From Rhodothermales bacterium (GTDB taxonomy: Bacteria > Bacteroidota > Rhodothermia > Rhodothermales > JANQRZ01), in the NCBI GenBank assembly GCA_965215145.1, contig OZ244038.1, forward strand, positions 90,257 through 154,256: DNA of 64,000 nt, written 5' to 3'. The notes beneath the pieces were generated by a model that searched no databases, was not told the DNA's origin, and was given only the letters and a program-made list of their open reading frames with translations. A program made the position numbers and the translations under genes. The first letter of the stretch is position 1, and each line of letters opens with the position of its first letter. Below are positions 3,466 to 63,702 of the stretch, piece by piece.

Positions 3466-3749
3466 TGGCCCGGCGGGACAGGGTGTTACGTCGGACCTCG
3501 CAGTTCAAGCGCGACGCGAAGCTGGCGAAGCGGCGGGGGAAGAACCTCGGCAAGCTGCGCGAGGTGGTCGAGAAGCTGGCGGCGGGGGAGGTGCTGGAAG
3601 AGCGCTTCCGCGACCATGCGCTCCTCGGCGGATACCGGGGGAGCCGCGAGTGCCACCTCGAACCGGACTGGCTGCTGATCTACGAGGCGACGGCCGAGGA
3701 GGTGGTGCTGATCCGGACGGGGACGCACGCGGACCTGTTCAAGAAGTAG
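3465..3749 (+). CDS. yafQ: type II toxin YafQ (RelE superfamily mRNA interferase)
   Basis: 94 aa from ATG 3465 (TGATG overlap with the dinJ stop; the track starts at GTG 3462). FKRDAKLAKRRGKNLGKL...RDHALLGGYRGSRECHLEPDWLLIY...RTGTHADLF matches the YafQ pattern (YSKDVKLAQKRHKDMNKL...KDHPLQGSWKGYRDAHVEPDWILIY...RTGTHAALF). Confidence 0.85.
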   Translation: MARRDRVLRRTSQFKRDAKLAKRRGKNLGKLREVVEKLAAGEVLEERFRDHALLGGYRGSRECHLEPDWLLIYEATAEEVVLIRTGTHADLFKK

Positions 3750-40316: not shown

Positions 40317-41693
40317 TCAGCCCTCCGCGTTGAAGATGCGGAACACGTCCGGCCGGCCGGCGAGCGGCAACGGCTCGCGGTTCAGGCGGAGCTCGATCAG
40401 CGTTGTCGTCGAGGGGTAGAAGAACTTGACGGCGGTGTCACGCAGCATCGGGGTGACGTTCACGGCCGCGTCCCACTTCCCCTCCTCATGGACCCTCCGC
40501 TGCCTCGGGTCCACCTTCTCGCTCCCGAACCCGTGGTAGCCGACGAGGCGCGAGCCGGACGACGCGATCACCCGGAGCCAGAGGTTCTCGAGCTTCTCGG
40601 GCTTCATCTTCGAGAGGTCCACGTGGAAGGTCCGGAGGCTCGAATCGCCGCCGTAGACGTGGACGTCCATGCTGAAATCCCTCAGGGGCTTAGGGCGCCC
40701 GTTCTCGCCATGAGTGAAGAGCTGGAGGTTGTAGTCCGGGATCGGGTCCCCGCGCTCGTCCACGGCGCGGACGACGAACTGCTGGTAGCGCCGCATCGTG
40801 CCGTGACGCTGCACGGCCGCCATCACCGCCGGGCTCTGCTGCCACCGCTCGTAGGCCGCCTTCGAGGAGACCTCCAGCGCGGAGGTCACCATCTTGACGA
40901 GGGCGGGGGCGGGCTCGCGGAGGATAGTGCCGTGGTTGTGGTCGAGCACGGGGATGAGCGACCACGGCCCCGGCGCCCACGGCTCGATGCGGAAGCGCCG
41001 GCCGGGGTCCACGCCCGGCTCGACGGTGAGGTCCACCGTGATCTTCCGGGAGTCGAGCGAGCAGCCGGCCCAGCGGACGGTGCCGTCGGTGCCGGGCTCG
41101 GAGATGAGCCGCTTGAGGCCGCCGTAGCTCTTGTCCCCGCAGAAGGTGAACACGTACGGCGTGGCGCCCGTCGGCCCGAACGTGGGGTCCCGGCGGGCGG
41201 CCTCGCCGACGAGGTCGCGGTGGGCGAGGTCCCACGTGAACCGGCTCGCGAGCTCGAGCCCGTCGAGGATGCGGTCGCCGGCCTCGAGGAAGTCGGGGCC
41301 GAACGCCTTGCGGCCTTTGAAGATGCTGCCGAGCCAGCTCCGCCCCTTGTGCGCCAGCGGCGAGCCGAACGACGCCGGCGCCAGCCCGACGAGGTGCTTC
41401 AGCCGCGAGCGCCGCTTCGCGTAGGCCGCCAGCCACGACCGGATCACCAGCATCCCCGTCGAGTGGACGATGGCGTCGAAGGGCTCGTCGGCCGAGAGCC
41501 CGACCTGCTCGCGGAGCGCGCGGTCGAAGCCCTCGGCGAGGTCGCGGATCGAGACCTCGTTGGTGAGCGTCTCGTACTCGCAGGTGTGGACGGCCGTGAC
41601 GTCGTGGCCGGCGGCGGCGAGGGCGCGGCGCCAGAGCCCGAAGGAGGCGCCCTCGTCGGAGTAGCCGTGGATGAGGACGACGGGGAGACTCAT
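40317..41693 (-). CDS. alpha/beta-hydrolase (lipase/esterase-like) with large uncharacterised C-terminal domain
   Basis: 458 aa. VVLIHGYSDEGASF and the nucleophile elbow IVHSTGMLV in the first approximately 200 aa. The remaining approximately 250 aa have no motif I recognise. Confidence 0.65.
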   Translation of the reverse strand: MSLPVVLIHGYSDEGASFGLWRRALAAAGHDVTAVHTCEYETLTNEVSIRDLAEGFDRALREQVGLSADEPFDAIVHSTGMLVIRSWLAAYAKRRSRLKHLVGLAPASFGSPLAHKGRSWLGSIFKGRKAFGPDFLEAGDRILDGLELASRFTWDLAHRDLVGEAARRDPTFGPTGATPYVFTFCGDKSYGGLKRLISEPGTDGTVRWAGCSLDSRKITVDLTVEPGVDPGRRFRIEPWAPGPWSLIPVLDHNHGTILREPAPALVKMVTSALEVSSKAAYERWQQSPAVMAAVQRHGTMRRYQQFVVRAVDERGDPIPDYNLQLFTHGENGRPKPLRDFSMDVHVYGGDSSLRTFHVDLSKMKPEKLENLWLRVIASSGSRLVGYHGFGSEKVDPRQRRVHEEGKWDAAVNVTPMLRDTAVKFFYPSTTTLIELRLNREPLPLAGRPDVFRIFNAEG

Positions 41694-41735: not shown

Positions 41736-41871
41736 CCCCCTCCCCAGACGAGGAGGGGGTGTCCGAAGGACGGGGGTGGTTGGCCGGAGCCACGAAGCGG
41801 GTCTACCCAACCACCCCGCTCGCTCAGGGACGAGTCCCTGAGCGAGTTGCCCCTCCTTCGGCAAGGAGGGG
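41736..41871. repeat. array of four consecutive GC-rich hairpins
   Basis: 41736-41759 (CCCCCTCC/GGAGGGGG). 41774-41816 (GGGTGGTTGG/CCAACCACCC). 41819-41846 (perfect 12-bp CTCGCTCAGGGA/TCCCTGAGCGAG, loop CGAG). 41850-41871 (CCCCTCCTT/AAGGAGGGG, loop CGGC). Confidence 0.75.
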
Positions 41872-41994: not shown

Positions 41995-43512
41995 ATGCCC
42001 GACCTCACCGACCTCACGACCCTCGGCGCGCTGAAGCAGGCCGGCTACCGGCCCCGGCCCGTCAAGGACGAGGTCCGCGAGAACCTGATCCGCAAGCTCC
42101 GCGCGGGCGAGGACGTCTTCCCCGGCATCCTCGGCTTCGACCGGACGGTGACCCCACACGTCCAGAACGCGCTGCTCGCCCGGCACGACCTGATCCTGCT
42201 CGGCCTCCGGGGGCAGGCCAAGAGCCGCATCGTCCGGATGCTCCCGACGCTGCTCGACGAGCACCTCCCCGTCGTCGCCGGGTCTGAGGTCCACGACGAC
42301 CCCTTCGCGCCGGTCTCGAAGATGGCCCGCGACCTCGTGGCCGAGCGCGGCGACGAGACCCCCATCGAGTGGGTCGGCCGGGAGGCCCGCTACGGCGAGA
42401 AGCTCGCCACGCCCGACACCTCCGTGGCCGACCTCATCGGGGACATCGACCCCATCAAGGCCGCCACGCGCAAGCTGACCTACGCCGACGAGGAGGTGAT
42501 CCACTTCGGCATCATCCCCCGGACCAACCGCGGCATCTTCGCCATCAACGAGCTGCCGGACCTCCAGCCGCGCATCCAGGTCGGGCTGCTGAACGTGATG
42601 GAGGAGCAGGACATCCAGATCCGCGGCTTCAACGTCCGCATCCCGCTGGACCTGCTGATGGTGTTCACGGCCAACCCCGAGGACTACACCAACCGCGGCT
42701 CGATCATCACCCCGCTGAAGGACCGGATCGACAGCCAGATCATCACCCACTACCCGCGCTCGCTGGAGATCGGCGTGGAGATCACGCGGCAGGAGGCGTG
42801 GCAGGAGCGCGACGGCGCCGCGGCCGTCCACCTCCCCCACGTCTTCCGGGAGGTCGTGGAGCAGGTGGCCTTCGAGGCGCGCGAGAGCGAGTACGTGGAC
42901 CAGAAGTCCGGCGTCTCGGCGCGGCTGACGCGGGCGGCGCTGGAGGCGCTCGTCTCGGCCGCCGAGCGGCGGGCGCTCCTCAACGGCGAGCCCGAGACGA
43001 CCGTCCGGGTCACCGACCTCCAGGCCGTCGAGCCGGCGGTGACGGGGAAGGTGGAGCTGGTCTACGAGGGCGAGCAGGAGGGCGCCCAGGGCGTGGCCCA
43101 CCTCCTCATCGGCCGCGCCCTCGGGGCGACGTTCAAGCGCTACTTCCCCGACCCCACCGACAAGGAGAAGGGCCGGGAGGCCTATCAGAAGGTCCTCGGG
43201 TGGTTCTCGAAGGGGAACGCCCTCGACCTCGACGCGGGGATGGCGTTCGACGCCTACGCGAAGGCGCTCGACCGGGTGGACGGGCTCCGCGAGGTCGTCG
43301 CCCAGCACACGAGCCCGGCGACGCCAGCCGAGGCGGCGAGCATGATGGAGCTCGTCGTCGAGGGGCTCCACCAGCACTCCCTCGTGGGGAAAGACCGCGT
43401 GGCCGGCGAGCTCCAGTACACCGACATCATGGGCAGCGTGCTCGGCTCCATCGGCCGGATCGAGGACGACGACGAGGACTGGGAGGACTTCCGCCGCCGC
43501 TACGGTGGCTGA
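41995..43512 (+). CDS. ChlI/MoxR-like AAA+ ATPase
   Basis: 505 aa. LILLGLRGQAKSR, GIFAINELPDLQPRIQVGLLNVMEE, MVFTANPEDY. Often annotated as magnesium-chelatase-like or sigma-54-interaction-domain ATPase. Confidence 0.7.
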   Translation: MPDLTDLTTLGALKQAGYRPRPVKDEVRENLIRKLRAGEDVFPGILGFDRTVTPHVQNALLARHDLILLGLRGQAKSRIVRMLPTLLDEHLPVVAGSEVHDDPFAPVSKMARDLVAERGDETPIEWVGREARYGEKLATPDTSVADLIGDIDPIKAATRKLTYADEEVIHFGIIPRTNRGIFAINELPDLQPRIQVGLLNVMEEQDIQIRGFNVRIPLDLLMVFTANPEDYTNRGSIITPLKDRIDSQIITHYPRSLEIGVEITRQEAWQERDGAAAVHLPHVFREVVEQVAFEARESEYVDQKSGVSARLTRAALEALVSAAERRALLNGEPETTVRVTDLQAVEPAVTGKVELVYEGEQEGAQGVAHLLIGRALGATFKRYFPDPTDKEKGREAYQKVLGWFSKGNALDLDAGMAFDAYAKALDRVDGLREVVAQHTSPATPAEAASMMELVVEGLHQHSLVGKDRVAGELQYTDIMGSVLGSIGRIEDDDEDWEDFRRRYGG

Positions 43513-43517
43513 GGGCG
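43496..43517. repeat. direct repeat, left copy (contains the ATPase stop codon)
   Basis: GCCGCTACGGTGGCTGAGGGCG. 17 of 22 positions are identical to 44316-44337. Confidence 0.7.
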
Positions 43518-43546
43518 TTAAATTGCGACAACCAGACTCAGGAGAC

Positions 43547-43831
43547 ATGGTCGACGTAAAGCAGGCGGTGCAAGCCGCTACCAGCTATTTCGAAGATTTA
43601 TACTCTCAGGAACTGGCGAGTTGGTTGCGTCTCGAAGAGGTGAAGCTCTCGGAGGACGAGAGCCAATGGCAGATTACGTTGAGCTTCGTTGACGAATCTG
43701 AGTCTCACCCGCTTAGTCCCGTCCTGGGTTCGGCACCACGGCATTATAAGATTTTTGAAATCGATGCAGACTCGGGGAAGGTCAGGTCTATGTTAATCCG
43801 CAAAATCAATGACACGTCGGTATCTCAATGA
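43547..43831 (+). CDS. small hypothetical protein (candidate partner of the PIN-like protein)
   Basis: 94 aa from ATG 43547 (the track start GTG 43505 lies inside the direct repeat). No RHH, AbrB or HTH signature seen. Overlaps the next gene by 23 nt. Confidence 0.5.
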   Translation: MVDVKQAVQAATSYFEDLYSQELASWLRLEEVKLSEDESQWQITLSFVDESESHPLSPVLGSAPRHYKIFEIDADSGKVRSMLIRKINDTSVSQ

Positions 43832-44315
43832 TTTGCTCAAGCGCTATCGGACGCGCGGAATTCTCGTCGATGCCAACCTCCTCCTACTCTACGTCGTGGG
43901 CACCCACGACGAGCGGCTAATCACCTCGTTTAAGCGCACCCGGCAGTTCACGCCGGAAGACTACCGTCTGCTTGCTAGCATCGTCGGGTACTTTGAGCGA
44001 ATCGTCACGACGCCGCACGTCCTCACTGAGGTCAACGGGCTCTCGAATCAGCTTCCCGGCCGGCTCCGCTTCGACTTCTATGGCACATTCGGAAGCGGCC
44101 TCAGGGAATGGACAGAGCAGCTGTTTCCCTCGACTGAGGCTGTCGAGAACATGGCTTTCCGGTATCTCGGGCTGACCGACGCGGCCATTGCGGAGGTAGC
44201 GAGGGGCGACGTGCTCGTGCTGAGCGTTGACCTGGACCTTATCACTCACCTCCATAAGACCGGGCGCGACGCGATCAACTTCAACAACATCCGCCCACTC
44301 GGCTGGTCGATATGA
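43809..44315 (+). CDS. PIN-like domain protein (putative nuclease/toxin)
   Basis: 168 aa. Acidic residues fall in the canonical PIN order and context: GILVDANLL (D21), HVLTEVNGL (E74), GLTDAAIAEVA (D124), VLSVDLDLI (D141/D143). Confidence 0.55.
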   Translation: MTRRYLNDLLKRYRTRGILVDANLLLLYVVGTHDERLITSFKRTRQFTPEDYRLLASIVGYFERIVTTPHVLTEVNGLSNQLPGRLRFDFYGTFGSGLREWTEQLFPSTEAVENMAFRYLGLTDAAIAEVARGDVLVLSVDLDLITHLHKTGRDAINFNNIRPLGWSI

Positions 44316-44337
44316 GCCGCTACGGCGGTTGAAGCGG
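44316..44337. repeat. direct repeat, right copy
   Basis: GCCGCTACGGCGGTTGAAGCGG begins 1 nt after the PIN-like gene stop. It also reads CGC TAC GGC GGT TGA (RYGG-stop). Confidence 0.7.
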
Positions 44338-44394
44338 GAGGCGTGAGTGCCGATGGGGTAACTTGACGTGCGCTTCTAACCCACCACACGCTTG

Positions 44395-45510
44395 ATGCGC
44401 CCCCTCCTCTTTGCCGCTCTGCTCTGCGGGGCGGTGCCCCTCGCCGCGCAACCGGCCGACTCGCTTCTCCCCCCCCCGTCCGCAGAACCCGACGAGGCCG
44501 ACCTCGCCGTCGGGGGGCAGCTCGTCGGGGCGGTCTACGAGGCGCCGCCGTTCGCCTTTAAGCACCCGGACGGGACGTGGGACGGGATCGCCGTCGAGCT
44601 GTGGCGGGACGTCGGGCGGGAGCTTGGCTTTGACGCCGAGATCCTCGAGGTCCCCGAGGCCGAGGCGCTCGCCACCGTCGCCACGGGCTCGGCCGACGTG
44701 GCCGTCGTCGCCGTGGCCGAGGCGGAGCCCGAGGCGGCCGTCGCGTTCACGCACGCCTACTACACCGCCCCGCTCGGCGTGGCCGAGAAGGGCGAGCGCG
44801 TGCCGAGCATCGGCGAGGTCATCGGCCGCGTGCTCTCGCCGACGTTTCTCTGGATCGTGCTCGGGCTGGCCGTGCTGCTGCTGGTCGTGGGGGCCCTCGT
44901 GTGGCTGGCCGAGCGGCACGAGAACTCCGACGACTTCGAGGAGGAGGCGAAGCCGGGGCTGTGGTCCGGGTTCTGGTGGGCCGGCGTCACGATGACGACG
45001 ATCGGCTACGGCGACAAAGCGCCGAAGACGGTCCCCGGCCGCGTCGTCGCGCTGTTCTGGATGCTCGTCTCGATGGGGCTCACGGCCGCGCTGACGGCGA
45101 CCATCGTCTCGGCGCTCGGGATCGGCTCGGGCGGCGGGAGCAGCAGCAACGCCAGCCTCCCCGGCGACCTCGAGGAGAAGGCCGTCGGGGTCGTCGAGCG
45201 CTCGGCGGCGGCGGAGTACCTCTCGACCATCGGCCTCTCGGCCCGCACGTTCCCCGACGAGAAGGCCGGCCTCCGCGCGCTGCGGGACGACAGCCTCGAC
45301 GCCTTCGTGGCCACGGCGCCGGTGCTGGAGCAGGCGATGAAGGACGTGGACGGGGACTTCTCGATGAGCACGACGCGGGTCGAGCCGCAGCGCTACGCCT
45401 TCGCCGTGGGCGCCGAGAGCGCGCTGCGGGACCGGCTCGGGCGGGCCGTGCTGGAGCAGACCCGCGGCGCCTCGTGGCAGGCGACGCTGGAGCGCTACCT
45501 CGGGGGGTGA
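44395..45510 (+). CDS. GluR0-type ligand-gated potassium channel (periplasmic binding domain split by a K+ channel pore)
   Basis: 371 aa from ATG 44395 (track TTG 44392). Signal peptide, then an SBP lobe (YEAPPFAFKHPDGTWDGIAVELWRDV). M1 is FLWIVLGLAVLLLVVGALVWL. Pore is WWAGVTMTTIGYGDKAP. M2 is VVALFWMLVSMGLTAALTATIV. A second SBP lobe follows. Confidence 0.75.
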   Translation: MRPLLFAALLCGAVPLAAQPADSLLPPPSAEPDEADLAVGGQLVGAVYEAPPFAFKHPDGTWDGIAVELWRDVGRELGFDAEILEVPEAEALATVATGSADVAVVAVAEAEPEAAVAFTHAYYTAPLGVAEKGERVPSIGEVIGRVLSPTFLWIVLGLAVLLLVVGALVWLAERHENSDDFEEEAKPGLWSGFWWAGVTMTTIGYGDKAPKTVPGRVVALFWMLVSMGLTAALTATIVSALGIGSGGGSSSNASLPGDLEEKAVGVVERSAAAEYLSTIGLSARTFPDEKAGLRALRDDSLDAFVATAPVLEQAMKDVDGDFSMSTTRVEPQRYAFAVGAESALRDRLGRAVLEQTRGASWQATLERYLGG

Positions 45511-58084: not shown

Positions 58085-58537
58085 TCAGCGGATGAGGCGG
58101 TAGAACCGGAAGAGGTCGTAGTCGAGCGGGAGCACCTCGAGGTCGCGGAGGCCGGCCTCTTGCGCGTACCGGCGGAGCGTGTCGGTCCGCATCACCGTGC
58201 CGGTCGCGGCGCACGTGTGCCCCGAGCAGTCGGCGATGCCGACGGGGAGGCAGTGGAATGCGCTGAACCCGTAGAACAGCCGCTCCAGCACGTCGGCGTC
58301 GGGGGCGAACCCCTCGGCCACGCGCTCGTCCACGACGAGGACGGTGCCGTCCAGCTTCGCCAGCCGCCGCATCGTGGCGAGCGCAGCGACGGGGTGCCCC
58401 ATGTCGTGCACGCACTCGACCGCGATCACGAGGTCGTACTGCCCCTCCAGGTCGGGGTCGGCGATGTCGTGGTGATGGATCCGCACCCCCTCCTGCAGAA
58501 GCTCCGTGCAGAGCGGGTTGCTCTCGACGGCTAGGCG
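58085..58537 (-). pseudogene. 5'-truncated class I methyltransferase remnant
   Basis: Only the distal part of the fold is encoded (YDLVIAVECVHDMGHPVAALATMRRLAKLDGTVLVVDE...). The SAM-binding motif I region is missing. The in-frame upstream part of track ORF 58085-58954 is an alternate-frame reading of the WYL gene. The first usable start would be a GTG just before RIHHHD. Confidence 0.45.
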
Positions 58538-58539
58538 GT

Positions 58540-59532
58540 TCAGGTCGTTGTGGACTCTGCATAGTGCTCCGCTAGCGCGCGTGCCCGCTCCTGGAGCCTG
58601 TCGCGCAGTCCCTCCGGCTCCAGGGCGACTACGTCTGTGCCGTACCGGAGCAGCCACCGGGCCACGTAGTCGAGGTTCTCGAAGTAGAACGTGACCCGGA
58701 TGCCCTCGTCGGTCTCCACCACCTCCTCGACCTCGGCCGGGATGCTGCGCTTGGCCCAGCGGTAAGCACGGGGACGGAAGCGCAGGGTGATCCTCTCGTT
58801 GCGGGGGCTCGACCCCTTCTCCCTTAGGTACTCCTGAAGGTTGAAGGTCTCCGGAGGCTGGAACGAATCCATCAGCACCCGCATCTTGCGGATGCGGTCG
58901 AGGCGGAAGTTGCGCACGTCCCTGCGGAGGTGGTCGTAGGCGATGAGGTTCCACGAGTCCGAATAGTACACGAGCCCGAGCGGGTCCACCTTCCGCTTCG
59001 TCAGCTCATCCCGACTCGCCACGTAGTACTCCATCCACACGCTCCGCTGCCGAGCGACGGCTTCGGAGAGCTCGTACCACTGCCCCTGCTCGTCGTGACC
59101 GCCTCCGGGGTCGAGGTTGCGGACGTAGGGCGCGATCACGGTGCTCTCCTGCAACCGGTCGATGTAGACCCGGATGGGCTCGGGCAGCACAGAGCGGATC
59201 TTCAGCGCGACCTCGTCGGCGTCCGTCCGCAATGAGTTGTCGGGCTGCAGCTTTGTGAATGCGGTGCCGACGAGGAGCGTCGCCGCCTCACGGGCGGTGA
59301 ACATCAGGGGGGGGAGCTGGTAGCCCTCGAGGATCTCGTATCCACCCCCGTCGGCGTAGGTCAGTGGGACGCCGGACTCCGAAAGCGTCCGCAGGTCGCG
59401 GAAGACCGTGCGTCGGCTGACGCCGAAGTGCTCGGCGAGATCCTTCGACGTCATGCTCGGGCGGTTCTGCAAGAGCAAGACCAGGGCGAACAGACGTTCG
59501 GTCTTGTTCAGTGTGCGCTCCGACTGCGGCAT
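58540..59532 (-). CDS. HTH + WYL domain transcriptional regulator (YafY-like)
   Basis: 330 aa. RLFALVLLLQNRPSMTSKDLAEHFGVSRRTVFRDLRTL (HTH). WYL region VDPLGLVYYSDSWNLIAYDHLRRDVRNFRLDRI. C-terminal extension domain. Confidence 0.85.
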   Translation of the reverse strand: MPQSERTLNKTERLFALVLLLQNRPSMTSKDLAEHFGVSRRTVFRDLRTLSESGVPLTYADGGGYEILEGYQLPPLMFTAREAATLLVGTAFTKLQPDNSLRTDADEVALKIRSVLPEPIRVYIDRLQESTVIAPYVRNLDPGGGHDEQGQWYELSEAVARQRSVWMEYYVASRDELTKRKVDPLGLVYYSDSWNLIAYDHLRRDVRNFRLDRIRKMRVLMDSFQPPETFNLQEYLREKGSSPRNERITLRFRPRAYRWAKRSIPAEVEEVVETDEGIRVTFYFENLDYVARWLLRYGTDVVALEPEGLRDRLQERARALAEHYAESTTT

Positions 59533-59606
59533 GGGGATCTGCGGTGGGGTGACACCAAAGTGGCATCACACCAACGCCTATTACTGCCTCGGGTTGCTCC
59601 TGTCCG

Positions 59607-60272
59607 CTACGTTTGCTTCCAGCCGACGTGAACGAGTCGCTTGTTGAGGCCATGATGGCTACTCGGCAATGGGAGGTCTTCGACGACGGTGTGCGGGAAC
59701 GTGTGCATCAGCGTGATCTTCTCCTCGTCTAGGTCTCCGCCCTTCAAGGCGATCAGACCCGAGGCCCACCCCTCCTCCCCCAGCGTGTCGTTCGGAGCTA
59801 GGACTCGCTCTGTCCACCGCCACAGTTCTGCGAGAGGAGCAGTGGCTCTCGAGACGGCATATCCGGCCTCGCCGTCCCATCCCTCCGCCCTACCATGCCA
59901 AGCGCTGACGTTCTCAAGACCGAGCTCGCGTATCATGTCCCTAACGGCTCGGACCTTCTTGCCGACGCTATCGACTAGCACGAATTCTACCTCAGGAAAC
60001 GCCACAGCAAGCGGGAGACCGGGAAATCCGCCCCCAGTGCCCCAGTCGACCACCCTGGTTCCGCTTTTGAACGGGCGGACCGCTATGCAAAGGCTGTGGA
60101 GCACGTGGCGCCTCCAGAAATCTTTGGTGCTCGCTTGGGAGTAAAGGTTGAGACGCCGGTTCCAGACGAGGGCCCGCTGCATAAGGAGCTCTAGCTTCTC
60201 CCGCTGCTGCTCGTTAAGCGCTGCGGTCGGATCAGACAGTCTCACGGCTTCCCATTGTTTCATGTGAAACAC
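59607..60272 (-). CDS. rsmG: 16S rRNA (guanine527-N7)-methyltransferase
   Basis: 221 aa (GTG 60272 or ATG 60263). [38 protein letters not shown]. Confidence 0.85.
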
Positions 60273-62175
60273 CGCGCTGCCCGTCCGCTCCCCCTGGGAG
60301 TCGGCGACCTCGAAGCAGCACCATCAAGGCCGCTATGTCAGCAGGGCTCACCCCGCTGATCCTACTCGCCTGACCGAGGGTCTGAGGCCGAATACGCTCC
60401 AGCTTCTGTCGTGCCTCCGTTGAGAGTGAAGTCAGGCGGCGGTAGGCTAGGTCCTCGGGAAGGACCTCGTTCTCCACCCGCTCCATCCTCCGAACCGCCT
60501 GGTGCTCGCGCTCAATGTAGCCAGCGTACTTGAGTTCGGTCTCTACCGTCGCTGCCGTCTCTTCCATACCAGGAGACTCTACCACCACGTCCGAGGCCCC
60601 CGCCGCCTCCAGAAGTGATCGGAGCTTCACCTCCGGGCGAGCTATGAGCTTCGCAAGCCGTGACGGATGGGAGATGGGGGCCGTGCCGATCCGGCGGAGG
60701 TAAGGATTCACGCGCTCAGGCTCTACCGCCCGCTCCTCGAGCCCAGATCGGGTTGCTGCTACGGCATCCCATCGGGCTTCCATCCGACGTAGCCGCTGGA
60801 AGGAGGCGAGCCCGATCTGATACCCCAAGGGAGTGAGCCGTGAGTCGGCGTTGTCTTGGCGGAGTAGTAGACGGTGCTCTGCTCTGGAGGTGAACATCCG
60901 ATACGGCTCCTCCGTCCCCTTCGCGACCAAGTCATCAATCAGGACTCCGATGTACGCCTGGGAGCGAGGCAGAACCACAGCGGCTTCCCCCCGCAGCTGC
61001 CGGGCGGCATTAACCCCGGCGATCAGGCCCTGTGCAGCCGCCTCCTCGTACCCCGTCGTGCCGTTGATCTGGCCTGCGAAGAAGAGCCCGCTTACCCGCT
61101 TGGTCTCGAGCGAGTACCGAAGCTGGTAGGGGGGGAAGTAGTCGTACTCGATGGCGTAGCCAGGCCGAAGGAGGTGACACCGTTCGAGCCCTGACACGTG
61201 CCGAAGGGCTGTCAGCTGGACGTCCTCGGGCAGCGAGGTCGAGAAACCGTTGACGTAAACCTCGTAGGTGTTCCTGCCTTCGGGTTCGAGAAAGAGCTGG
61301 TGGCTGTCCTTGCCGGCAAACCGCTCTAGCTTGTCTTCGATGGATGGGCAATAGCGCGGCCCGACGCCTTTAATGCGTCCTTTGAACATCGGGCTGCGGC
61401 TAAAGCCAGTCCGGAGGAGACGATGCACTCCGGGGTTGGTAGAGGTCAGCCAACATGGGAGCTGCTGCTGCGGGAGAGCGTCTGTGAGGAAGGAGAAGGG
61501 GCTCGGGTGCTCGTCGCCGGGTTGCTCCTCCAGCTGGTCGTAGTCAATGGTCCGGCCGTCGATGCGAGGCGGTGTCCCCGTCTTGAGTCGGCCTGCCTCG
61601 AAACCCAGCCGCACCAGTGAGGCGGTGATCCCCGAGGCGGCACGCTCGCCGGCTCGCCCACCACCAAACTGCTGCTCACCGAGGTGAATGGTGCCGTTCA
61701 AGAAGGTGCCGTTCGTCAGCACCACCGCCGCGGCGTGGAAGACTCGCCCCGTCTGCGTCTGGATACCAGTTACAGCGCCATCCTCGGTGAGCACCTCCAC
61801 CGCCATGTCCTGACGCAAGTACAAATCGGGTAGGGACTCAAGCTCCTCGCGCACCGCCGCTGCGTAGGCGACCCGATCACTCTGCGCCCGTGGGCTCCAC
61901 ACCGCCGGCCCCTTGCTGCGGTTGAGCATGCGGAACTGGACGGCGGTTCGATCTGTGACGCGCCCCATCAATCCTCCGAGCGCATCGATCTCGCGGACGA
62001 GTTGCCCCTTTCCTACCCCGCCGATGGCCGGATTACATGACATCCGCCCGGCGGCCTCGAGGTTCATCGTGACGAGTAGGGTGTGGGCTCCCATCCGAGC
62101 CGCAGCGTGGGCAGCCTCAGCGCCAGCGTGCCCAGCACCGACTACGATCACGTCAAATCGATCAATTTCGCCCAT
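60232..62175 (-). CDS. mnmG: tRNA uridine 5-carboxymethylaminomethyl modification enzyme
   Basis: 647 aa. [69 protein letters not shown]. Confidence 0.95.
60256..60271. promoter_or_regulatory. parS-like centromere site
   Basis: TGTTTCATGTGAAACA matches the TGTTNCACGTGAAACA consensus at 15 of 16 positions. It lies inside the 3' end of mnmG and at the rsmG start. Confidence 0.6.
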
Positions 62176-62247
62176 AACGCCTCAGGATAAACTTCGAGTG
62201 GGTTGGGTTAAAACCTAACTTCTTAAGAAGTGACTACGGAGGCCGCC

Positions 62248-63702
62248 TCACTTACCGATACAGAACCGCGCGAAGATGGCCCCGAGCACGTCGTCTCTGG
62301 TCACCTCCCCCGTCACCCCCCCGAGCTCGTCCAACGCAAGGCGGAGGTCGTGTGCCACCACGTCCGGCGAACTCCGCTTCGCCAATGAGGCTCTAGAGGC
62401 GGATAAGGCACGGCGAGCGTGACTGAGGTGCTGATAGTGACGCTGGTTGAGAACAATCAAGGAGGCGGAGGCATCGGCTGCCTTTTCGAAGACGACGGAA
62501 GCAAGCCGGACACGCAGAGGGTTCAAAAGCTCGGGGGCGACGGTAGCGTCACGAGCAGAGAGTGGTAGATAGGCGGCAGCCGAGGTGACTGCTTCGGAGT
62601 CGGGTGAAGCCAGGTCCGCCTTATTACCGATAAGGAGGAGAGGGACGCTGGAGGGCTGCGCTCCGCTGAGCTCCGCATCATCTTGTTTCACGGTGAAACA
62701 GGCTGGAGGGGGGCTCGGCGAGGCGAAACGTCTCAGCCACTCTCGCTCGTCGGGGTAAAGCCCGGCTTGCAAGTCGAAGACGTAGAGTAGCAGATCGGCG
62801 TGGGTGGCGGCGTGGGTGGCGCGGCGGACGCCCTCGGCCTCGATCTCGTCCTCTGCCTCGCGCAGCCCGGCCGTGTCGACGAAGCGGAAGGCGACCCCCG
62901 CGATCTCAACCTCCGCTTCGATCTCATCGCGGGTCGTCCCCGGCGTACCACTGACGATGGCGCGGTCGTACCCGACGAGCGCGTTCAGGAGCGTGCTCTT
63001 ACCCGCGTTGGGGCGCCCCGCGATCACCACCCGCACGCCGTCGCGGACGAATGCACCGAGGCGGTAGGAACCGAGGAGCCGGTCGAGCAAAGCCTCTGCG
63101 CGGTCGATGGCTTCCAGAAGCTGCGTACGGTCGGCGAACTCGACATCTTCCTCGGTGAAATCGAGTTCCAGCTCCACCAGCGCGCAGAGGCCGAGAAGCT
63201 CCTCGCGGATTTCGGAGAGCGCGGCCGAATAGCGGCCTTCGAGATGGCCGAGCGCGACGCGGTGCGCGAGCGTGCTCTTCGCGTGGATCAGCTCGGCGAC
63301 GGCCTCGGCCTGGGCGAGGTCGAGCTTACCGTTGAGGAACGCGCGCTCGGTGAACTCGCCGGGGCGGGCGAGGCGGGCGCCACCGTCGAGCAGCGCGCGG
63401 AGGACGAGCTGTGGCGCCACGTCGCCGCCGTGGCACGAGACCTCGACCACGTCCTCCCCCGTCGCGCTGCGCGGCGCGCGGAACACCGTCGCCACAACCT
63501 GATCGAGCCGTACCCCCTCCCCCGACTCGAAGTAGCCGACGTGCGCGGTGTGGCTCTCTGCGCCCGCGAGGTCGCAGCCCGGCAGGCATCGGTCTGCGAT
63601 CACGACGGCTTCAGGCCCGGAGAGGCGGACGATGGCGAGCGCCGCCTGCCCCCGCGCCGTGGCGATCGCTGCGATGGTGTCTGTGTCCGGGAGGACCTGC
63701 AT
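62248..63702 (-). CDS. mnmE: tRNA modification GTPase
   Basis: 484 aa. TIAAIATARGQAALAIVRLSG, GRPNAGKSTLLNAL, DTAGLRE, GNKADL, C-terminal FCIGK. Confidence 0.9.
   Translation of the reverse strand: MQVLPDTDTIAAIATARGQAALAIVRLSGPEAVVIADRCLPGCDLAGAESHTAHVGYFESGEGVRLDQVVATVFRAPRSATGEDVVEVSCHGGDVAPQLVLRALLDGGARLARPGEFTERAFLNGKLDLAQAEAVAELIHAKSTLAHRVALGHLEGRYSAALSEIREELLGLCALVELELDFTEEDVEFADRTQLLEAIDRAEALLDRLLGSYRLGAFVRDGVRVVIAGRPNAGKSTLLNALVGYDRAIVSGTPGTTRDEIEAEVEIAGVAFRFVDTAGLREAEDEIEAEGVRRATHAATHADLLLYVFDLQAGLYPDEREWLRRFASPSPPPACFTVKQDDAELSGAQPSSVPLLLIGNKADLASPDSEAVTSAAAYLPLSARDATVAPELLNPLRVRLASVVFEKAADASASLIVLNQRHYQHLSHARRALSASRASLAKRSSPDVVAHDLRLALDELGGVTGEVTRDDVLGAIFARFCIGK
62684..62700. promoter_or_regulatory. 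17-bp parS-like variant (extra central base)
   Basis: TGTTTCAC-G-GTGAAACA has both parS half-sites intact with one additional central G. It lies inside mnmE codons 335-340 (CFTVKQ). Confidence 0.4.

Follow-up and report, generated by a model that had tools for sequence, protein, structure and literature searches.

Insertion with long target duplication was reportedly described by Nobusato et al. (2000, Gene 259:99) for restriction-modification (RM) gene units. Such units, which lack mobility genes, have been found inserted with target duplications of 30 to ~420 bp, some of them overlapping the 3' ends of genes (Furuta, Abe and Kobayashi 2010, PMC2853133). In conjugation experiments with E. 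coli, circles that bore a fragment of the locus gave rise, through a single crossover, to duplications of 109-950 bp (PMC3240628). In Microcystis aeruginosa PCC 7806, a ParE/ParD module is fenced by two identical 152-bp direct repeats (PMC7935541). The locus compared here with these systems is a two-gene islet of 0.8 kb and low GC (guanine plus cytosine) content, located directly behind an AAA+ ATPase gene in a 64-kb stretch of DNA (64,000 nt, hereafter the window) from a Rhodothermales bacterium (contig OZ244038.1). With moderate confidence, we propose that the two-gene cassette reached its position at the 3' end of the ATPase gene with no recombinase of its own, by host recombination that duplicated the target, and that it was later inherited mostly vertically. 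The features of the locus are listed below in window coordinates (ORF, open reading frame).

41995-43512, + strand: target gene, encoding an AAA+ ATPase of 505 aa (AAA_5 / ChlI-like; Pfam and NCBIfam matches), with a C-terminus of the native type (...RRRYGG-stop).
43496-43512, + strand: left direct repeat, comprising the last 14 coding bases of the ATPase gene and its stop codon.
43513-43546, + strand: low-GC leader of 34 nt, the left edge of the inserted DNA lying directly after the ATPase stop.
43547-43831, + strand: ORF1, 94 aa, a PepSY-like small protein and presumed antitoxin or inhibitor partner, with a 23-nt overlap with ORF2.
43809-44315, + strand: ORF2, 168 aa, a predicted PIN-fold nuclease (VapC-like) and presumed toxin.
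44316-44332, + strand: right direct repeat, a spare and non-coding duplicate of the end of the ATPase gene, which begins at the first base after the ORF2 stop.
44333-45510, + strand: native 62-nt spacer and the gene of a GluR0-like ligand-gated ion channel (SBP_bac_3 + Ion_trans_2), the original right-hand neighbour of the ATPase gene.

A sequence-only reading of the window had proposed 22-bp direct repeats at both ends of the islet. The left copy was given as GCCGCTACGGTGGCTGAGGGCG (43496-43517), which contains the ATPase stop (TGA, 43510-43512), and the right copy as GCCGCTACGGCGGTTGAAGCGG (44316-44337), which follows the ORF2 stop (TGA, 44313-44315). The identity of 17/22 over this extent was reproduced, and the meaningful core was narrowed to 17 nt, identical at 15/17 positions. 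The ATPase gene ends in ...CGC CGC TAC GGT GGC TGA, while the right copy, GCC GCT ACG GCG GTT GA, reads CGC TAC GGC GGT TGA in the ATPase frame. Both copies have the form CGC TAC GGN GGN TGA (R-Y-G-G-stop), as had been noticed from the sequence, and the two differences within the core each fall at a synonymous third position.

Further copies were sought across the window, in which the degenerate 17-mer occurs twice, at these two places only (0.12 occurrences expected). The bare repeat is not exceptional in DNA of 72% GC: it ranks 20th of 37 repeat families in the 3-kb stretch, and 13% of mock pairs spaced 800 nt apart in GC-rich DNA match its score in 250-nt search windows. Its placement at both stop codons is what is exceptional, and this is not chance. 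In 50-nt windows centred on the two stop codons, its score was equalled by 0.5% of 20,000 equally spaced random window pairs (p ~0.005). The right repeat is a true duplicate of the ATPase 3' end, and the ATPase gene is thereby kept whole. A role of the repeat in RNA (hairpin or terminator) was rejected, the fold z-scores being -1.9 and -0.6, with no terminator or sigma-70 promoter-like sites and no Rfam match there or elsewhere in the islet.

The ATPase gene is conserved across the Rhodothermales: 77 full-length orthologues were found, Rubrivirga litoralis (77%) being the closest among named genomes. Empty sites, such as the sequence-only reading had suggested looking for, were found in four related loci (L002, L004, L010 and L056; related loci are denoted by L and a number), in which the same ion-channel gene lies directly after the ATPase gene. 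The spacer between ATPase stop and channel start measures 64 nt in L002, versus 62 nt from the TGA of the right copy in the window. Because the ATPases of the cassette-free loci L002, L003 and L073 also terminate in RRRYGG-stop, this is taken as the native end; RRRYGG-stop or RRYG-stop ends occur among loci without the cassette. In the same three loci, ...CGCTACGGNGGNTAA/TAG is present in single copy as the ATPase end. The repeat accordingly corresponds to a sequence that is single-copy at the empty site of related genomes, and the islet is evidently an insertion relative to the ancestral ATPase-channel arrangement.

A homologous cassette was detected directly behind the ATPase gene in nine other loci (L001, L166, L167, L170, L168, L014, L084, L006 and L009). 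In L001, the end of that locus's own ATPase gene is repeated around the cassette over 42 nt (40/42), and in L166/L167 a repeat of their own gene end measures 36 nt (32/36), the right copy overlapping the ORF2 stop codon in each case. In L014, a ~47-nt repeat of the spacer just past the ATPase stop was observed, with the right copy running from the first base after the ORF2 stop. An origin of this L014 repeat in a repetitive extragenic palindromic (REP) element was rejected, since the motif GGCGTAGGTTGAGG is confined to the two flanking copies among 170 loci and is absent from the window. The leaders of L001, L166 and L170 are 30 nt long and have the same start point as the 34-nt leader of the window, and L170, a close relative of L166, has lost the right repeat copy.

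Two further loci, L007 (2430-2480) and L011 (5560-5610), contain no cassette and carry a second in-frame copy of the gene end right after the ATPase stop. The gene end of L011 reads ...CGCCGCTATGGATGA G CGCCGCCGCTACGGGTGA, the two copies agreeing at 13/15 positions with both differences synonymous; the copy in L007 is more decayed. TGAG microhomologies are present at both junctions in the window, and deletion of the cassette between them would give the arrangement seen in L007 and L011. The double gene end of these two loci is a probable scar of precise cassette loss.

Footprints were also apparent across the wider cassette family. A score of at least 40 was reached by the flanking repeats of 6 of 65 cassettes, but by none of the 122 mock cassettes set at displaced positions in those loci (Fisher p=0.0015) and by only 2 of 504 GC-rich mocks. 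Among the six cassettes, L132 was discounted as a target duplication, its repeat being dispersed: the ~112-nt sequence (2453-2564 and 3555-3670) is an AT-rich element with several more copies in L132 and L115 (L115:3784-3849).

The most informative junctions were found among four cyanobacterial cassettes with 90-96% identity (L110, L113, L124 and L104). Of these, L113 and L124 represent orthologous loci, with the cassette located between a gene of 142 aa and a DUF1156 methylase gene. L110 has no flank in common with L113, L124 or L104; its homology to them begins 74 nt upstream of ORF1 and breaks off precisely at the ORF2 stop codon. Its insert carries donor flank, namely the final codons plus stop codon of the 142-aa gene that lies upstream in the donor, and on either side of the insert lies a 192-nt stretch from the 3' end of a convergent host gene, duplicated at 93% identity. 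The L104 cassette is 96% identical to that of L113, the flanks being 81-84% identical. The right junction is common to both. At the left junction, the L104 cassette follows on from roughly codon 48 of the methylase gene, as a result of which the first ~146 nt (5' part) of that gene are duplicated. Near-identical cassettes in unrelated flanks show recent mobility. In L104, the 142-aa gene is separated from the duplicated methylase fragment by an extra segment of ~580 nt, with a 114-aa minus-strand ORF (1967-2311); nothing is present at this position in L113 and L124, and the segment has the appearance of a further small insertion into this hotspot.

Elsewhere in the family, the 3' end of the upstream gene is repeated in L123 over at least 112 nt (109/112). 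The cassettes of L143, L145 and L146 lie directly against tRNA-His at its 3' end, and L146 has a partial tRNA copy on the far side. In other close pairs of cassettes, homology is lost 1-90 nt from the ORF2 stop and 13-125 nt upstream of ORF1, and no conserved cassette termini were seen among the junctions compared. Five cyanobacterial plasmids also carry homologues of the cassette, here too a short distance upstream of DUF1156 genes, and none was detected in phages; PADLOC and the phage collections gave no cassette matches. The cyanobacterial cassettes (L113:2218-6367, L124 and L104, together with the plasmids NC_019742.1 = L171 and NZ_CP046706.1 = L172) are always positioned 3-5 nt upstream of the DUF1156 methylase gene. 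This gene belongs to a DUF499/DUF1156 cluster, a defence-like neighbourhood, and the upstream neighbour of the cassette varies.

In terms of its footprint, the family resembles the RM insertions (PMC2853133) in several respects. A small addiction-type unit without mobility genes lies between direct repeats whose sequence occurs once in the empty-site genome, that vary in length (30 to ~420 bp for RM units, 17-192 nt here) and that in some cases extend into a tRNA or the 3' end of an adjacent gene, and the insert's GC content is often below that of the host. The Kobayashi-lab definition of the class sets a cut-off of >30 bp for the repeats. The window copy falls below it (17 nt, or 22 nt at 17/22), in contrast to L001 (42), L166 (36), L014 (~47), L123 (at least 112), L104 (~146) and L110 (192 nt). 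We regard the window islet as a faded member of the class. Unlike the RM insertions, the cargo is a PIN/PepSY-like pair, so that cleavage of DNA by the cargo is not assumable; the edge of the cassette repeatedly coincides with a stop codon; and the cassette is tied to one anchor gene in each of two phyla, the ATPase in Rhodothermales and the DUF1156 methylase in cyanobacteria. The ParE/ParD module of Microcystis is similar in being a chromosomal toxin-antitoxin pair directly behind a host gene, with long direct repeats and no mobility genes. It differs in toxin family, and in that its repeats contain internal inverted repeats and have not been demonstrated to be a target duplication.

Because the repeats vary in length, register and sequence between loci and one insert contains donor flank, the footprints are ascribed to recombinase-free insertion with target duplication. 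Two routes may be envisaged. In the first, a fragment or circle carrying the cassette and a piece of a neighbouring gene would undergo one crossover with the homologous gene, either as a Campbell-type event or by one-sided homologous recombination combined with illegitimate joining. In the second, the two ends of a fragment would be joined at staggered positions on sister chromosomes. By either route, the target gene would be left intact, with the cassette right behind its stop codon and a spare gene end on the far side. The anchor gene for the crossover would be the upstream ATPase in Rhodothermales and the downstream DUF1156 methylase in cyanobacteria. The host-recombination route is considered to fit because of the L104 case and because the cassette is kept beside one anchor gene in each lineage. 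Campbell-type single crossover (PMC3240628) and homology-facilitated illegitimate recombination, the latter in transformable bacteria, likewise duplicate a homologous segment around foreign DNA, with host recombination sufficing, and predict a cassette beside one anchor gene with the other flank varying. Unlike those precedents, which are known from laboratory constructs, the operation of the route here is read from footprints, and a 17-nt repeat is too short, in its present form, as a crossover substrate. The spare copy in the window would have been trimmed or decayed to 17 nt. In some relatives the cassette may have been lost cleanly, repeat-by-repeat recombination restoring a perfect empty site, and elsewhere it would persist with both genes intact, being presumably addictive. 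We infer the recombination route, the toxin-antitoxin function and the mechanism of loss; the anatomy, the fold-based identities of the genes, the empty and occupied sites, the longer repeats of relatives, the recent movement of near-identical cassettes and the lack of a recombinase are shown.

The two cassette genes were analyzed further. ORF2 has 472 database homologues, a few of which are labelled PIN or FCF1 by their sources, and no family was matched at threshold in Pfam, NCBIfam or PADLOC. The AlphaFold2 (AF2) model is of high confidence (pLDDT 94.9), and the top Foldseek matches were PIN/VapC proteins (PAE2754, VapC20, VapC4 and VapBC15), followed by other PIN-like nucleases. The acidic residues D21, E103, D124 and D141 are invariant, and E74 is kept in at least 90% of the sequences. 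By its modelled fold, ORF2 is a PIN-fold nuclease with an intact predicted acidic site. The suggestion of a decayed element is at variance with the intact state of both genes and the conserved catalytic residues of the PIN protein.

For ORF1, a single-sequence search returned the self match alone, whereas a profile built from the locus-derived ORF1 proteins detected 135 homologues. The gene is fast-evolving, and a homologous small gene precedes ORF2 in 28 of the 28 cassettes examined; weak PepSY matches were obtained for 10 of these 28 members. The model consists of one helix on a four-stranded sheet (AF2 pLDDT 85). Its fold matches are weak, the most telling being the C-terminal domain of YpeB, and no DNA-binding family (AbrB, RHH, Phd or HTH) was matched in domain and fold searches.

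The islet appears to be a member of a widespread, self-contained family of two-gene cassettes that combine a PepSY-like protein with a PIN nuclease. By analogy, the cassette is most likely a putative toxin-antitoxin-type addiction module with an unusual inhibitor-like partner. As in type II modules of the VapBC (PIN) type, the two small genes overlap and are co-directional, the small partner lies upstream, the PIN fold retains conserved acidic residues, and the distribution is patchy and mobile, including plasmids and defence-gene neighbourhoods. Unlike VapBC, the upstream partner is PepSY-like and lacks an AbrB, RHH, Phd or HTH domain, and the putative toxin is longer (~167 aa), with no Pfam or NCBIfam PIN model at threshold. 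A functional link between cassette and ATPase was rejected: the ATPase is universal in the order and the cassette patchy, and the neighbours in other phyla are unrelated.

The low GC content of the islet, originally counted by hand, was borne out by computation. The GC content of 43513-44315 is 0.562, versus 0.704 for the ATPase gene and 0.732 downstream (flanks 0.70-0.74), and the islet forms the deepest GC trough of the window. At third codon positions (GC3), the values are 0.61 for ORF1 and 0.77 for ORF2, versus 0.99 for the ATPase and 0.97 for the channel. The cassette lies below both of its flanks in 61 of 64 related loci from many phyla, with a mean offset of 10.7 points, and its GC content still tracks that of the host across the 64 loci (r=0.89). 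Low GC is a persistent family-wide trait and provides no clock for recent arrival. Because the cassette is ~11 GC points below its host in nearly all of these loci, and the cassette tree mirrors the host tree, a recent foreign arrival was rejected. The persistent offset fits accessory genes that escape whatever holds core-gene GC high. Other stretches of reduced GC (0.59-0.66) occur in the window at 1500-2400 and 58500-63000, the former falling within a 517-aa secreted protein (1341-2894) with a C-terminal tail of the type IX secretion system (T9SS) type.

The age of the window copy was assessed from an ORF2 tree of 87 cassettes, in which all of the ATPase-site cassettes form one clade. The branching of these cassettes mirrors the ATPase tree, and ORF2 identity scales roughly with ATPase identity. 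Because the two phylogenies mirror each other, the cassette in the window is considered an old resident of the ATPase site, mostly inherited vertically and repeatedly lost, rather than a recent arrival as judged from these trees.

The same observations are shared by the best surviving alternative, in which a single ancient insertion into the ATPase-channel spacer was followed by life as an ordinary vertical accessory operon, the relic repeats being kept alike by occasional gene conversion. This alternative departs from our proposal mainly by denying later anchored transfer at the ATPase site. Besides the monophyly and the matching trees and divergences, it accounts for the common repeat register of L001 and L166 and, through clean repeat-by-repeat loss, for the patchy distribution. 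We nevertheless consider it unlikely. The repeat register lies at the gene end in clade A and in the spacer in clade C, a poor fit to a single frozen event; lineage-specific TAC or TTC codons are present in both copies; and GC3 is far from equilibrium. Moreover, in its last 300 nt the window ATPase gene is 81-83% identical to that of the cassette-bearing L001 but 73-78% identical to those of L002 and L073, both empty; across the 5' two-thirds, its similarity to L001 and to L002 is about the same. This hints weakly at linked transfer. A recombination breakpoint in the ATPase gene was not accepted, the excess similarity of the 3' end to L001 being weak. The third-position bias of the repeat differences (5/7 by hand count, too few) was likewise set aside as evidence of a donor allele.

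Less probable still is a trans-mobilised mini-island, with the repeats as attL/attR cores and an integrase from elsewhere in the genome acting at the ATPase 3' end, as in cis-mobilisable elements and satellite islands. Duplicated gene and tRNA 3' ends are the classic footprint of tyrosine-integrase islands, the edges of the insert are sharp, and the cassette recurs at one gene end in many Rhodothermales. As in integrase islands or prophages at tRNA or gene 3' ends, the target gene is undamaged, with part of its 3' end repeated beyond the insert. The sequence-only reading had interpreted the locus in this sense, as an element that integrated into the 3' end of a gene and supplied a surrogate gene end; the insertion and the duplicated gene end hold, whereas no sign of site-specific integration or of an element-borne end was found. 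The repeats range from 17 to 192 nt, and even among ATPase-site insertions they shift in register, from the gene end (clade A) to the spacer (L014). They derive, depending on the locus, from the ATPase end, the ATPase-channel spacer, the 5' end of the methylase gene, the 3' end of another gene or tRNA-His, and their unrelated sequences leave no single att site. The majority of loci have no repeat at all, and the L110 insert encloses donor flank. As had been observed at the outset, the islet, at 0.8 kb, contains no integrase or transposase, and domain and fold searches identified its two ORFs as its sole genes; no recombinase was found in ~70 related cassettes either. In the window, no integrase was detected within ~4-5 kb on either side, the flanks that the screen covered. 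An integrase-mediated island was rejected in view of the missing tyrosine or serine recombinase in the element and the lack of a common att core among the insertions.

Other classes of element were discarded on similar grounds. No terminal inverted repeats bound the islet in the 3-kb stretch, in agreement with the sequence-only reading, and the duplication length of 17-192 nt is not fixed, which argues against an insertion sequence, miniature inverted-repeat transposable element (MITE) or transposon. An integron gene cassette, which would have at its 3' end an attC site (an imperfect inverted repeat with RYYYAAC...GTTRRRY cores), was rejected because the leader motif GTTAAAT (a GTTRRRY match) does not recur at the other junctions and the 3' flanks are host gene sequence rather than attC-like (by eye). 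A perfect 13-bp inverted repeat, CTCGCTCAGGGAC-GA-GTCCCTGAGCGAG, was noted further upstream in the window (41819-41846), in the divergent intergenic region between a hydrolase gene (40317-41693, minus strand) and the ATPase gene. The neighbours of the islet encode the hydrolase, the ATPase, the ion channel and an FG-GAP/T9SS protein, and no mobility gene is present in or beside the insert.

Self-mobilisation, in which an ORF1-guided PIN nuclease would break DNA for the insertion of its own genes, or a processed RNA or DNA intermediate would have its end set at the ORF2 stop, is very unlikely. The right edge of the insert does coincide with the ORF2 stop in several apparently independent events, and the long, variable duplications are reminiscent of repair after widely staggered breaks. 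For RM units, an origin of the same footprint in their double-strand-break activity was proposed by Furuta et al. (PMC2853133). The cassettes have no conserved terminal sequences, L110 carries donor flank, and the unit lacks a reverse transcriptase or any other enzyme. Characterised VapC-type PIN toxins, moreover, are RNases. Scarcely more credible is the related idea that the PepSY-like/PIN cassettes are a hitherto unrecognised type of autonomous selfish element, whose own nuclease pair makes widely staggered breaks or processes an intermediate ending at its own stop; if true, it would explain the spread of "immobile" chromosomal toxin-antitoxin modules via long, variable target duplication. 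Least probable of all is a coincidental 17-nt similarity in low-complexity GC-rich sequence of the CGCCGC type around a low-GC accessory operon: despite the frequency of equal scores among the GC-rich mock pairs and the numerous comparable repeats within 3 kb, it is effectively refuted by the unmistakable repeats at homologous positions in L001 and L166, in addition to the positional test, the in-frame TGA that ends both copies and their synonymous differences.

Several observations weigh against entry by host recombination with target duplication, followed by mostly vertical inheritance. The insert ends at or near the ORF2 stop in several apparently independent events (window +1, L001/L166 -1, L014 +1, L146 +7, and +1 for the L110/L113 homology break), which random illegitimate joining does not predict. 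The repeat in the window, at 17 nt, is not only under the 30-bp criterion but also below what RecA normally needs, and for this reason the mechanism is read from the relatives and not from the window copy. The nearest empty sites are ~78% identical in ATPase protein and belong to different species, not conspecifics. Both repeat copies have TAC in the window and TTC in L001/L166, which requires independent insertions or gene conversion, and cassette GC3 remains far from that of the host (0.61-0.77, versus 0.97-0.99) despite apparently long residence. As regards function, ORF1 is without the DNA-binding domain typical of type II antitoxins, and the toxicity of ORF2 is only presumed.

It has long been unclear how chromosomal toxin-antitoxin modules move between genomes without a mobility gene of their own. 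The present family defines an unannotated PIN subfamily with an unusual PepSY-like partner, and it provides natural footprints of several ages: fresh ones of 146-192 nt, with donor flank attached; middle-aged ones of 36-47 nt; and the faded one of 17 nt, together with one candidate scar from cassette loss. Taken together, these footprints link a toxin-antitoxin-like module with the recombinase-free mode of insertion with long target duplication, which has so far been documented for RM units, and they suggest a concrete and testable route, namely host recombination anchored on one neighbouring gene.

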